Source: an uncultured Bacilli bacterium
Lineage (GTDB): Bacteria; Bacillota_I; Bacilli_A; RF39; UBA660
DNA: 64,000 nucleotides
Assembly (NCBI GenBank): GCA_934101185.1
Contig: CAKOQD010000002.1
Location: 11,554 to 75,553 of the forward strand
Direction: 5' to 3'
Part shown: positions 16,905-52,823 of the stretch, in pieces
Layout of the letters: each line of letters starts with the position of its first letter
How positions within the stretch are numbered: the stretch's first letter is position 1
The notes under the pieces: generated by a model
What the model was told of the DNA's origin: nothing
The model's input: only the letters and a program-made list of their open reading frames with translations
Database searches by the model: none
Made by a program: the position numbers and the translations under genes

Positions 16905-16991
16905 GCCTGCGTGGCGGAATTGGTAGACGCGCTGGACTCAAAATCCAGTGGTAGCAATATCGTGTGGGTTCGAGTCCCACCGCAGGCACCA
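16905..16991 (+). tRNA. tRNA-Leu, anticodon CAA, with encoded CCA
   Basis: Hand-folded cloverleaf. Acceptor gcctgcg/cgcaggc, D-arm gcgg-aattggtaga-cgc, anticodon stem ctgga/tccag with loop ctCAAaa, long variable arm, T-arm gtggg-ttcgagt-cccac, discriminator A plus CCA. Confidence 0.9.
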
Positions 16992-21627: not shown

Positions 21628-21633
21628 TTGTTC

Positions 21634-21914: not shown

Positions 21915-23228
21915 ATGAAAAAAATATATTTTAAAAATTTAAATGAATATTTTGGACAAGAAATAACTATTGAAGGTTTTGTCGATAATATTCGTGATTT
22001 ACAATATGTTCAATTTTTAATTGTTAGAGACACTACAGGTAAGGTTCAAGTAACAATTGAAAAAAACGAAAATAATAGTAAATTAAATGAAATTGTTTCT
22101 AATTTAGCAATTGAAAGCACGGTTAAAATTATTGGAACATTATTTAAAAATGAGAAAGTTAAACTTAATGGAATGGAGCTAATACCAAACGATATATTTG
22201 TAACTAGTAAATGTTTGGAGGAATTACCTTTAAACTATAAAGATAGCAAGTCCGCACTATTGGATACTAGATTAAATTATAGATTTTTAGATTTAAGAAG
22301 TGAAAAAAATATTCTTATGTTTAAAGTTCAAACTTGTATGATTAATGCTATGAGAGAATTTGTTATAAAAAATAATTTTACAGAGATCCACACTCCTAAA
22401 ATTATTAGTGTAGCAAGTGAATCTGGCGCAGAAGTTTTTGAAGTAAAATACTTTGATAGAAAAGCATATTTAGCACAAAGTCCTCAATTTTATAAACAAA
22501 TGGCTATGTGTAGTGGTTTTGAAAAGGTATTTGAAATTGCACCAGCATTCAGAGCAGAAAACTCTAATTCATATAGACACACTACAGACTTTACATCATT
22601 CGATATTGAGATGAGTTATATCGAATCTTTAGAAGAACTTATGGATTTTGAAGAAGATTTATTTATTGCGGGGTTATCCGCAGTTAAAGAAAAATATGGG
22701 GAACAAATCAAAGAATTATTTAATGTAGATGTTATTATTCCTACTAAACCATTCCCAAGAATTAAGTTAGAAGAATTATATAAGGAATTAGAAAAAGAAT
22801 ATGATTTTAAAATGAATTATGAAGATGTTGGAGATATGAATGCAGAATCAGAGAGATTAGCATCTAAGTATGTTATGGAAAAATATGGGCATGAGTTTGT
22901 ATTTATAACAGACTTTAGTGCTAAAAAAAGAGCGTTCTATCATAAGAGAGAAAAAGGTATTCCACAAGGGGCTGACCTTATTTGGAAAGGCTGTGAAACA
23001 ACTACTTTAGCATTAAGAGAACATAACTATGAAACTTTATGTGAACAAGCTAAAGAAAAGGGATTAGGAGAAGATGTTAAGTTTTATCTTGAATTCTTTA
23101 AATATGGTTGTCCCCCTCATGGAGGATTTGCTCTTGGAGTAGATAGAATAACTATGCTATTATTAGAAACAGGTTCTTTAAAAGAAACAATGTTTATATT
23201 TAGAGGTCCTAGTAGAATAGAACCATAA
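21915..23228 (+). CDS. aspS: Aspartyl-tRNA synthetase, short archaeal/eukaryal-like type (AspRS2)
   Basis: 437 aa. OB-fold N-terminus. Class IIb motifs FRAENSNSYRHTTDFTSFDIEM and PPHGGFALGVDR. C-terminal FRGPSRIEP resembles the archaeal-type FPRD-x-x-R-L-x-P tail. The T-box specifier GAC agrees. Confidence 0.8.
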   Translation: MKKIYFKNLNEYFGQEITIEGFVDNIRDLQYVQFLIVRDTTGKVQVTIEKNENNSKLNEIVSNLAIESTVKIIGTLFKNEKVKLNGMELIPNDIFVTSKCLEELPLNYKDSKSALLDTRLNYRFLDLRSEKNILMFKVQTCMINAMREFVIKNNFTEIHTPKIISVASESGAEVFEVKYFDRKAYLAQSPQFYKQMAMCSGFEKVFEIAPAFRAENSNSYRHTTDFTSFDIEMSYIESLEELMDFEEDLFIAGLSAVKEKYGEQIKELFNVDVIIPTKPFPRIKLEELYKELEKEYDFKMNYEDVGDMNAESERLASKYVMEKYGHEFVFITDFSAKKRAFYHKREKGIPQGADLIWKGCETTTLALREHNYETLCEQAKEKGLGEDVKFYLEFFKYGCPPHGGFALGVDRITMLLLETGSLKETMFIFRGPSRIEP

Positions 23229-51132: not shown

Positions 51133-51207
51133 CTATCTCATGATGTGAAATAATAATAAATATATAATTATAAGCAGGGAAAAAATTAGAAAATCTTTTT
51201 TACTCAT
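51133..51207 (-). CDS. Candidate type I toxin-like 24-aa hydrophobic peptide
   Basis: Minus-strand RBS gtgaggtg 6 nt before the ATG. MSKKDFLIFSLLIIIYLLLFHIMR. Own consensus promoter. 5' UTR hairpin can pair with the SD. Confidence 0.35.
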   Translation of the reverse strand: MSKKDFLIFSLLIIIYLLLFHIMR

Positions 51208-51297: not shown

Positions 51298-51413
51298 GTT
51301 TGTTGAGAGTAGAAAAAACTAACAAGAAATAGTACTTGAAAAAGTGCTATTTTTGTTATAGAATTAACTTATAAGAAACTATGGAGGTAAAACTATGACA
51401 AACAATAATTCGT

Positions 51414-52823
51414 ATGGGGGGGGGGCAAAATACTTATAACCCTTTAAAAAACAAAGGAAGAAATAAAAAGATAATAACTATAATAATATTCTTAGTACTA
51501 ATAGTAGTTAGTATTTCTTTTGCTTTGTTTAATCCAAGTATCAACTTACTAGGAAGAAGAAATATAAAAATATCTAAATGTGAACTTGATATAAACTTTA
51601 AAGAAAGTGATGAGTTAATGCTAGTTAGTAAGTATCCCATATCAAAAGAAGGAGCTTTAAAGTATGATGCAAAAGATATAACTATAACTAATAATTCTAC
51701 ATGTGATACAGCATATTTCAAATTAACTATAAAAGACTTAAGTAATTCAAGTATAAATAAAGATAAGATAAATTATCAATTAATAGATAAAAGTAATAAT
51801 AATGAAATAGCAGATAAAAATCCAGATAATTTTTTAGTACAAGATTCACTTACTAAAGGAAATAGTAAATCATATAGTATAAGAATATGGATAGATGAGA
51901 GAGCTACAAATACTGATTTATATGTAAATGGAGATACAACAAAACCTATTGAATATAAATATGCACTTAATATTGAAGCAACCGATAAAAAACTAAAAGA
52001 AGATTATGCCTTAGATTTTGCACTAGCAAATGTAGGACAAAATGGATTAGAATTAGTAACACATGAAATAGATGATACATTACAAGTAGATAGTAAGTTT
52101 GCAAGTGAATATAGATATCGTGGTGGAAATGTAAATAACTATGTAACATTTAATAATGAGACATGGAGAATAATAGGAATAATACCTACTGAAGATGAAA
52201 ATGGTAATGTAGAAAATAGATTTAAAATTGTTAGTCAGGATTCACTTAGTGCAATTGATGGATGGGATACTAATGCTGCAGTTAGTTGGGAAAATGCAGA
52301 AGCTAACACATATTTAAATGATAACTATTATTATGATATGCTAAATGATACGGCGAGAGGTATGATAGGAACGACAAAATATTATCTTGGTTTAGCTCCA
52401 GGAACTTCTTCTGAAGTTTGGAAAGCTGAGCGTTCTAATTCTGATGAGTACTTTTTGGATTTAAATGGTAATGTGATTTCGAAAAACCATGTAAACAAAT
52501 TAGCACTAATTTATGCAAGTGATTATGGATATGCTGCTGATTCTTCTTGCGATGCTTTGACTACTCTTACTGCTCAAAATGTTACTGATACGGATACAAT
52601 AATAGCTTGCAAGGACAATAATTGGATGTATCAAACTTTGAAAGGTTATATAATTACCCAGCCTTCTAATCCGCAAGTTTGGTTAGTTATTGAAGACGGA
52701 GTAGTTAGAATGTCTATTTCTAGTCCTTTTGATATGTATCCAGTCCTAACACTCTCATCCAATGTAAAAATATCCGGAGGATCTGGCACAAGTTCTGACC
52801 CATACCAATTACAATTAAACTAA
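51414..52823 (+). CDS. Exported or membrane-anchored protein of unknown function, probably phase-variable at the G tract
   Basis: 469 aa. N-terminal TM/signal anchor KKIITIIIFLVLIVVSISFALF. C-terminal GGSGTSSDPYQL tail. The ATG at 51414 has no SD. The SD-bearing ATG at 51395 is in the +2 frame and would join this ORF with G9. Confidence 0.7.
   Translation: MGGGQNTYNPLKNKGRNKKIITIIIFLVLIVVSISFALFNPSINLLGRRNIKISKCELDINFKESDELMLVSKYPISKEGALKYDAKDITITNNSTCDTAYFKLTIKDLSNSSINKDKINYQLIDKSNNNEIADKNPDNFLVQDSLTKGNSKSYSIRIWIDERATNTDLYVNGDTTKPIEYKYALNIEATDKKLKEDYALDFALANVGQNGLELVTHEIDDTLQVDSKFASEYRYRGGNVNNYVTFNNETWRIIGIIPTEDENGNVENRFKIVSQDSLSAIDGWDTNAAVSWENAEANTYLNDNYYYDMLNDTARGMIGTTKYYLGLAPGTSSEVWKAERSNSDEYFLDLNGNVISKNHVNKLALIYASDYGYAADSSCDALTTLTAQNVTDTDTIIACKDNNWMYQTLKGYIITQPSNPQVWLVIEDGVVRMSISSPFDMYPVLTLSSNVKISGGSGTSSDPYQLQLN
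51416..51425 (+). repeat. Homopolymeric G10 tract at the 5' end of the 51414..52823 ORF
   Basis: The track translation MGGGQ requires ATG plus nine further G. It is the longest G/C homopolymer seen in this AT-rich window. Confidence 0.85.

Follow-up and report, generated by a model that had tools for sequence, protein, structure and literature searches.

Why does an AT-rich gut bacterium keep ten consecutive guanines within the first codons of a putative surface-protein gene, where they uncouple a strong ribosome binding site from the reading frame that it should serve? The question is raised by a 64,000-nucleotide (nt) stretch of contig CAKOQD010000002.1 from an uncultured Bacilli bacterium (assembly GCA_934101185.1; herein the window), whose poly-G tract a first-pass annotation had proposed as a phase-variation switch. 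Based on comparisons of this gene with its nearly identical counterparts and with its paralogues, we consider it likely that the tract is a contingency locus, at which slipped-strand mispairing would turn members of a surface-protein family on and off.

Direct reading of tatGGAGGtaaaactATGacaaacaataattcgtatGGGGGGGGGGcaaaatacttaTAAc, which spans the Shine-Dalgarno (SD) sequence, the start codon at 51395, and the tract, confirmed a run of exactly ten Gs (G10; 51416 through 51425) and the upstream ATG. The GGAGG that had been described is also present, displaced by one base (51383 through 51387, not 51384 through 51388), and its context, ATGGAGGTAAAAC-TATG, is found again in many paralogues. After ATG 51395 the codons read ACA AAC AAT AAT TCG TAT GGG GGG GGG GCA AAA TAC TTA TAA; as the first-pass annotation had claimed, at G10 this frame encodes MTNNNSYGGGAKYL and stops after 14 codons. 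The sequence and the list of open reading frames (ORFs) bear out that the long ORF (51414 through 52823; 469 residues) lies in another frame, +1 relative to ATG 51395, and that its first ATG has no SD: this codon consists of the last two bases of the TAT codon and the first G of the tract, and ACAAACAATAATTCGT, directly 5' of it, contains no purine-rich SD. We judge ATG 51414 to be incidental because it arises from TAT plus G and has no counterpart in paralogues whose tract follows TCT or CTA. One G fewer (G9) fuses ATG 51395 to the body of the long ORF, again as predicted, in a product of 475 residues that begins MTNNNSYGGGQNTY... (N-terminal peptide MTNNNSYGGGQNTYNPLK); the in-frame (ON) lengths of this copy are G9, or G6 or G12. 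The assumption that G10 is strictly off has to be qualified, as the in-frame ATG 51414 may make the G10 state of the window copy low or leaky.

The tract lies well outside what chance would give. No other G or C run in the window reaches 8, which bears out the description of the tract as highly unusual in AT-rich DNA; the next longest is a G7, and ∼10^-4 runs of ten Gs are expected at the GC content of 27.1%. The 48 long ORFs of the window use GGG for 32 of their 769 glycines (4%), and the chance of three GGG codons in succession at this codon usage is ∼7 × 10^-5. As GGG is such a minor glycine codon, the tract is evidently kept for its properties as DNA and not for coding. The G7 (17689 through 17695) was considered as a second tract and rejected: it is an SD-like, noncoding element of a 5' untranslated region, 10 nt 5' of ATG 17706, and the 435-residue ORF that begins there is preceded by a TTGATT-17-TATAAT promoter.

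The length of the tract is not fixed within what is essentially one strain. An exact look-up of the 469-residue product returned no contig; a search with the fused protein returned P0001, of 475 residues and 100% identical, in another assembly. The contig that encodes it (L001, ERZ27287143) carries G9 and matches the window throughout an alignment of 11,428 nt except for one gap, which is the tract. Four further contigs, found through other members of the same 90% cluster, have G11 (L053, from a Hadza assembly; one substitution relative to the window over 7.3 kb) or G10 (L054, L055, and L056; 0 to 1 substitutions over 4 to 5.4 kb). The six assemblies thus comprise one G9, four G10 (window included), and one G11, and differ by 0 to 1 substitutions over 4 to 11 kb, with no insertion or deletion (indel) except at the tract; none of the 19 A/T runs of at least 7 in the same 11.4 kb changes length. 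As the tract alone varies in length, it is the sole indel-polymorphic site in the strain and changes faster than base substitutions accumulate. The strain comparison suggested by the first-pass annotation therefore yields no single fixed length, and the public assemblies also argue against a true length of nine.

The tract recurs in a conserved setting. The survey set comprised the window and 56 loci (∼400 kb), from which all G or C runs of at least 8 were taken; it contains 44 tracts, every one in the same context, and no such run elsewhere. The shared leader cassette has the order promoter, SD (in many copies), start codon, 6 to 7 codons, poly-G, and CAAAATACT. The start codon lies 18 or 21 nt 5' of the tract, barring two copies in which a neighboring base has been absorbed into the tract and the spacing is 20 nt. 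The leader codons follow the pattern ..AA(Y) A(A/T)(T/A) (A/T)AT TCG NNN, then the tract, then CAA AAT ACT, and 3' of the tract all copies have an intact ORF of 340 to 600 codons in frame 0. One phase rule is common to all 44: the leader is in frame only if the tract length is divisible by three. The lengths observed are G9 (11 copies), G10 (24 copies), and G11 (9 copies). Together with G9, G10, and G11 among near-identical assemblies, these lengths, of which G10 is the commonest, support the phase-variation reading of the first-pass annotation; the gene stands as a candidate for phase variation, but not as the one-off switch that had been envisaged, being one copy of a leader cassette that is common to a multigene family in a clade of low-GC human-gut Bacilli.

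The protein database holds further states of the tract. Its in-frame N termini comprise 12 of the type ..YGGGQ (G9), two ..YGGQ (G6), and two ..YGGGGQ (G12), beside 42 out-of-frame calls (MGGGQ... or genetic code 4 read-through) and 35 truncated calls. One locus has an interrupted tract, GGGGGGCGC, that is locked in frame (L026, 3781 through 3806), and G10 copies (proteins P0042, P0044, and P0138) are back in frame via a 1-nt deletion just 3' of the tract (GGGAKYY; MTNNNSYGGGAKYYNP...), such that their predicted ON length has shifted to G10. Interruption and 1-nt compensation show, at the level of sequence, the turnover expected of contingency tracts.

Family members with unrelated N termini (MKKYLEKF..., MKKMLEKF...) have no tract, which marks the leader as a module that proteins of the family need not have. 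It fronts two distinct N-terminal anchor modules, both followed by mosaic C-terminal domains: type A, found in the window, consists of QNTYNPLKNKGRNKK, a hydrophobic segment, and then NLLGRRNIKISKCELDINFKE; type B reads QNTYKINPLFKDIKEYNKYLLSLIG...SYAKWSSSVESKN. The tract is kept across four GTDB species and both modules though the flanking codons vary. A scan of a genome collection found relatives only in four species-level metagenome-assembled genomes (MAGs) of uncultured Bacilli from the Hadza gut and in one contig binned elsewhere. A pattern scan of metagenome contigs gave 20 more true loci; the other 12 of its 32 matches were discarded as chance occurrences in unrelated higher-GC DNA or as short G6-7 runs. 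At least nine tracts are present in a single MAG, CAKOMW01, four of them on one 101-kb contig. A phage origin was also considered and rejected, the leader pattern being missing from 2.9 million viral contigs.

These data are best accommodated if the G tract is a hypermutable homopolymer in the codons of the cytoplasmic N-terminal tail of a surface protein, and if slipped-strand mispairing during replication alters its length. At G9 (or G6 or G12), ribosomes directed by the SD to ATG 51395 would read into the 475-residue protein (ON); at G10 or G11 they would stop after ∼14 codons (OFF), with at most weak initiation at the SD-less ATG 51414 in the G10 state of the window copy. Each paralogue with its own leader would switch independently, giving combinatorial variation of the surface. 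The sequence features by which contingency loci are recognized are present: a repeat of at least ∼8 units inside an ORF, seven codons after the start, whose number sets the frame, with a length that is polymorphic among near-identical genomes and an over-representation beyond coding need. We infer the mechanism of slippage, its reversibility, the switching rate, the exposure of the protein, and the selective agent (immunity, phage, or niche) from this pattern. High-frequency switching is established for G8 to G11 tracts in species such as Campylobacter jejuni, with repeat number setting the rate (PMC11868660).

Several points weigh against contingency switching. All tract lengths are assembly consensus calls, homopolymer lengths are error-prone in short-read metagenome assemblies (PMC8808543), and some of the near-identical assemblies may share a sample or derive from related samples. 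Length also clusters by assembly, with eight G10 and one G11 in ERZ857629 and four G9 in JABLTK01, which could reflect bias of platform or assembler, or lineage history. In the consensus, 33 of the 44 copies are out of frame; this fits a mostly silent family, but would also fit an unrecognized expression of G10. In addition, the SD next to the start codon is missing in several copies of other MAGs.

The alternative that survives best, although we regard it as improbable, is that G10 and G11 alleles are expressed without a switch at the level of DNA, through slippage of RNA polymerase, +1 ribosomal slippage (of tRNA-Gly on GGG GGG GGG G), or (re-)initiation at ATG 51414, with G10 as a functional low-level state. 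It would account well for the prevalence of G10 (24 of 44 tracts, more than any other length). The G10 state of the window copy has ATG 51414 in frame, with a product that retains the basic tail and the membrane anchor, and variants with ATT before the tract create a TTG at the same position. Yet ATG 51414 has no SD, paralogues in which TCT or CTA precedes the tract lack the overlapping start, and the surroundings hold neither an adjacent stop nor a known frameshift stimulator, the 0-frame stop lying four codons 3'. RNA folding gives the leader around the tract no significant structure (z = +0.9), and transcriptional slippage is documented mainly for A/T runs. A programmed shift should moreover have a fixed tract length, whereas a single strain has G9, G10, and G11, and some alleles are in frame.

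Less probable still is an artefact of sequencing or assembly, in which the true length is fixed (at G9, for example) and G10 and G11 are homopolymer errors. Homopolymers are a known weak point of both procedures (PMC8808543), lengths tend to be uniform within an assembly, and some contigs have only 7 to 13× coverage, going by their names. This explanation nevertheless requires errors in 33 of the 44 consensus calls, made in at least seven assembly projects with several assemblers; a fixed in-frame gene with an occasional sequencing error does not agree with that proportion. Moreover, one pipeline (k141 contigs) returned G9, G10, and G10 for the same strain in three assemblies between which no other homopolymer differs, and second-site compensation and tract interruption are real responses to real frameshifts. 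That the locus is a plain pseudogene, a decaying surface-protein gene hit by a chance frameshift, is scarcely credible: the window gene and many paralogues are out of frame, but the downstream ORF is intact (465 codons here and 340 to 600 in every out-of-frame paralogue), an otherwise identical strain has an in-frame G9 allele, and the frameshifts in the set of 44 copies coincide without exception with the conserved tract.

The reading of frames depends on the genetic code. TGA is the stop codon of 4 of the window's 48 ORFs, in two cases as part of an ATGA stop/start overlap, and Trp is encoded by TGG at each of its 66 positions; the standard bacterial code and the logic of frames set out above therefore hold. 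Genetic code 4 was rejected on these grounds: ENA calls such as MEVKLWQTIIRMGGG... extend the ORF upstream only by reading TGA as Trp. Public calls for the family (P0035, P0056, P0122, P0127, P0142, and P0145, and those on L054 through L056) use code 4 or start at MGGG, MLVSKYP, or MFNPSINL.

Upstream of the leader, most family copies have a promoter-like TTGAAA-17-TA(T/G)A(A/G)AAT, and CTTGAAAA and TA.AAT are invariant over 17 distinct copies. The −35 element TTGAAA of this promoter is formed by the loop and stem of a hairpin that is itself conserved in most family loci: across the 17 copies 84% of cells are paired, compared with 51 to 66% in slid controls, and five pairs change on both sides. 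The hairpin could be an insulating terminator (a terminator-plus-promoter arrangement) or an operator of the cassette. A riboswitch or other known RNA in the 490-nt upstream region was sought and rejected, as the only Rfam matches of the window lie elsewhere: a T-box leader at 21632 through 21866 (145.7 bits), 5' of the ORF at 21915 through 23228, and a single tRNA gene at 16905 through 16988. Seven loci (L004, L007, L020, L038, and L045, which are CAKOMW-type, and L008 and L025) have no SD at the ATG before the tract; ∼50 nt upstream they have a strong SD (AGAGGAGGA) with an in-frame GTG-TAA or GTG-TGA start-stop. A 7-codon upstream ORF, MRFLNFL*, overlaps the main ATG of L008 and L025 as ATGA. 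The arrangement suggests translational coupling, re-initiation, or silent copies of the cassette.

A divergent ORF of 24 codons (MSKKDFLIFSLLIIIYLLLFHIMR) lies on the minus strand at 51136 through 51207, with a strong SD, GTGAGGTGAT, and a near-consensus promoter-like site, TTGACA-16(TG)-TATATT (51297 through 51270, minus strand). The orthologous loci and L027 have the identical ORF, L018 has it with a single change, and a weakly similar MSKKD... peptide is encoded 5' of the tracts of L004 and L020. The ORF may be a gene for a small membrane peptide, or a toxin-like gene, that is linked to the cassette. Between it and a sigma-factor gene, a further hairpin (51078 through 51110; −14.5 kcal/mol, z = −5.6) followed by a T-rich stretch is probably a terminator.

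The product is predicted from its sequence and model to be a membrane-anchored or exported surface protein. The glycines encoded by the tract sit in a 25-residue N-terminal tail that ends in the basic KNKGRNKK, where one to four of them are evidently tolerated 5' of the membrane anchor. The hydrophobic segment that follows, IITIIIFLVLIVVSISFALF, is a signal anchor or else a signal peptide, for which SFA|L is a possible cleavage site; AlphaFold predicts a helix at residues 20 through 44. The AlphaFold model, built on an alignment of 60 sequences, has a mean predicted local distance difference test (pLDDT) score of 78 and a predicted template modeling (pTM) score of 0.65. The best Foldseek match of its β-sandwich in the PDB is 7ueg_A, an archaeal bundling pilin (E = 8 × 10^-5), followed by the TasA fiber 8aur (probability 0.95), the CanA cannula subunit 9h8b (0.94), and a CS20 pilin (0.94), all with low TM-scores of 0.34 to 0.39; a fold like that of fiber subunits (TasA/pilin) is thus a lead from the model. 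The window protein has no Pfam or NCBIfam match at E ≤ 1, including any Peptidase_M73/TasA model, and no PDB sequence match. Adjoining family members in two MAGs (L003, ∼2546 through 2599, and L015, 4884 through 5540, both on the plus strand) are ORFs that start with MNKKGFTLIELL or MNKKGFTFVELL, an N terminus that is type IV prepilin-like.

The C-terminal domain is the variable part. Window positions 52229 through 52738 cannot be aligned at the DNA level to locus L014, while the flanks are ∼95% and 98% identical; the C-terminal half is likewise a divergence hotspot, between flanks of ∼95 to 98% identity, when the window is compared with L014 and L018 from sister species. The pattern points to a mosaic or replaced binding domain and is as expected of an exposed part under diversifying selection. 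Neither the window protein nor P0001 matches DUF6273 (PF19789) at the Pfam threshold of 23.5 bits, which is passed by the paralogues P0009 (25.7 bits) and P0008 (24.2 bits); a dockerin is present in some paralogues. DUF6273 is reported to be C-type-lectin-like and a target of diversity-generating retroelements (DGRs) in phage receptor-binding proteins (PMC10743442).

A broader reading, which we advance tentatively and regard as slightly more doubtful than secure, is that a clade of low-GC human-gut Bacilli, mainly from the Hadza, runs a combinatorial phasome from one portable cassette. This cassette would consist of the insulating hairpin, the promoter, usually an SD, the 6- to 7-codon leader, and poly-G, and would have reached two or more anchor modules and numerous mosaic lectin-like heads, by spread or by homogenizing recombination. 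Each genome would have nine or more copies, the majority silent at any given time. Through the conserved TasA- or pilin-like domain the family would supply phase-variable fiber subunits with exchangeable binding heads, and with them antigenic and adhesive variation in the style of Opa or Vlp in a commensal Firmicute. The coordinates of the features of the window copy are collected in Table 1.

Table 1. Features of the poly-G leader and of the gene that it precedes, in window coordinates
Feature	Position	Strand	Remarks
Predicted hairpin, 13-bp stem, GAAA loop, U-rich 3' arm	51325..51354	+	Overlaps −35; −13 kcal/mol, z = −5.8
Sigma-70-like promoter TTGAAA-17-TAGAAT	51336..51364	+	Consensus scan, 10/12 matches; function inferred
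Shine-Dalgarno GGAGG	51383..51387	+	7 nt 5' of ATG 51395; direct read
Start codon and six leader codons (MTNNNSY)	51395..51415	+	ATG at 51395-51397
SD-less ATG overlapping the tract	51414..51416	+	Sole in-frame start of the long ORF at G10
Poly-G tract	51416..51425	+	Exactly ten Gs (G10); direct read
Body of the surface-protein ORF	51426..52823	+	Q11 to N475 in G9 numbering, plus stop codon
TAA closing the 14-codon frame of ATG 51395 in the G10 state	51437..51439	+	
Hydrophobic signal-anchor or signal-peptide segment	51471..51530	+	After KNKGRNKK; 20 residues
N-terminal β-sandwich domain (predicted)	51573..51995	+	Residues ∼60-200; pLDDT ∼80-90; most conserved family part
Variable C-terminal domain	52008..52820	+	∼270 residues; ends in conserved PVL.LSSNVKISGG.GTSSDPY motif

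Other genes of the window specify a MurD-type ligase, signal peptidase II, acetate kinase, a sigma-70-family factor, and surface proteins of dockerin- and cadherin-like type. Since the ligase is indicative of peptidoglycan synthesis, the organism is probably walled. No neighboring gene recurs across 34 family loci, and a dedicated regulator or partner was rejected, as the upstream sigma factor is found only at the orthologous locus; neither a sipW-like gene near the locus nor a DGR was seen. Just 5' (43425 through 48172, plus strand) are two large putative surface proteins: one of 941 residues with NlpC/P60, DUF11, a Listeria-Bacteroides repeat, and a C-terminal dockerin, and one of 641 residues with four cadherin-like domains, whose start overlaps the stop of the former as ATGA. 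Directly 3' of the switch gene (52931 through 56763, plus strand) is a YfhO (839 residues)/GT2/GtrA-like module with its own promoter-like TTGACA-17-TAAAAT (52874 through 52902); it is a candidate for glycosylation of a wall polymer or of protein.

Slipped-strand phase variation is textbook knowledge for Neisseria, Haemophilus, Campylobacter, Helicobacter, and the mycoplasmas; in the gut microbiota, attention has gone mostly to invertible DNA and promoters and to epigenetic switches. Our searches of the literature brought up no paper on this family or its tract, nor any on poly-G switching in such gut Bacilli. The comparisons indicate that a phase-variable multigene family in an uncultured gut lineage is probably real. 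Were the tracts to switch, they would form a large and easily scored set of contingency loci in Bacilli typical of non-industrialized guts, putatively governing adhesive or fiber surface proteins, and tract lengths in metagenomic reads would register, as a natural record, gut bottlenecks as well as selection by immunity or phage. There is also a consequence for catalogues: gene callers fragment the genes of this family, start them at MGGG..., or apply code 4, which leaves many artefactual N termini.

The predicted switch would function as the C. jejuni tracts do, in an architecture like that of Neisseria opa or of the variable surface-protein families of mycoplasmas. Among known systems, DUF6273 in the targets of DGRs and in phage tentaclins (PMC10743442) resembles the C-terminal domain of the paralogues that pass the DUF6273 threshold, which is the strain-variable part of the present family; variation in the present family would arise by on/off switching plus allelic or mosaic exchange, and not by retro-mutagenesis. 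TasA, the archaeal bundling pilin, and CanA are the best structural matches of the N-terminal β-sandwich, and a further likeness is the hydrophobic leader, which ends in ..SFALF and precedes a strand of high conservation; in contrast to them, the present protein has no Pfam or PDB sequence match, TM-scores of 0.34 to 0.39, and an extra large C-terminal domain. The poly-G phasome of C. jejuni is alike in its AT-rich genome, in the many rare, non-random, intragenic G9 to G11 tracts per genome, and in frameshift switching of cell-surface targets in a gut organism (PMC11868660), although switching is predicted here. Its tracts lie at varied positions in unrelated genes, mostly for glycosyltransferases or other modifiers, each with its own ON lengths, whereas the present family has one leader cassette with a single ON phase, in paralogous structural surface proteins of uncultured Bacilli. 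The Opa proteins of Neisseria, ∼11 paralogues with CTCTT repeats in the region encoding the signal peptide, are likewise a multigene family of surface adhesins in which each copy has a repeat in its leader codons and switches independently, most are off, and the exposed regions are hypervariable; they differ in their pentanucleotide repeat and in being outer-membrane β-barrels of a Gram-negative pathogen, with no relation of sequence or fold. Homopolymer switches are also known from mycoplasmas, as in Vaa of M. hominis (poly-A in the 5' coding region) and Vlp of M. hyorhinis (poly-A in the promoter). These low-GC relatives, placed in the class Bacilli by GTDB, share the homopolymer switch at the 5' end and the combinatorial variation of surface proteins; they are wall-less, read TGA as Trp, and switch lipoproteins through poly-A, whereas the organism described here has a MurD homologue, uses TGA as a stop, and carries poly-G.

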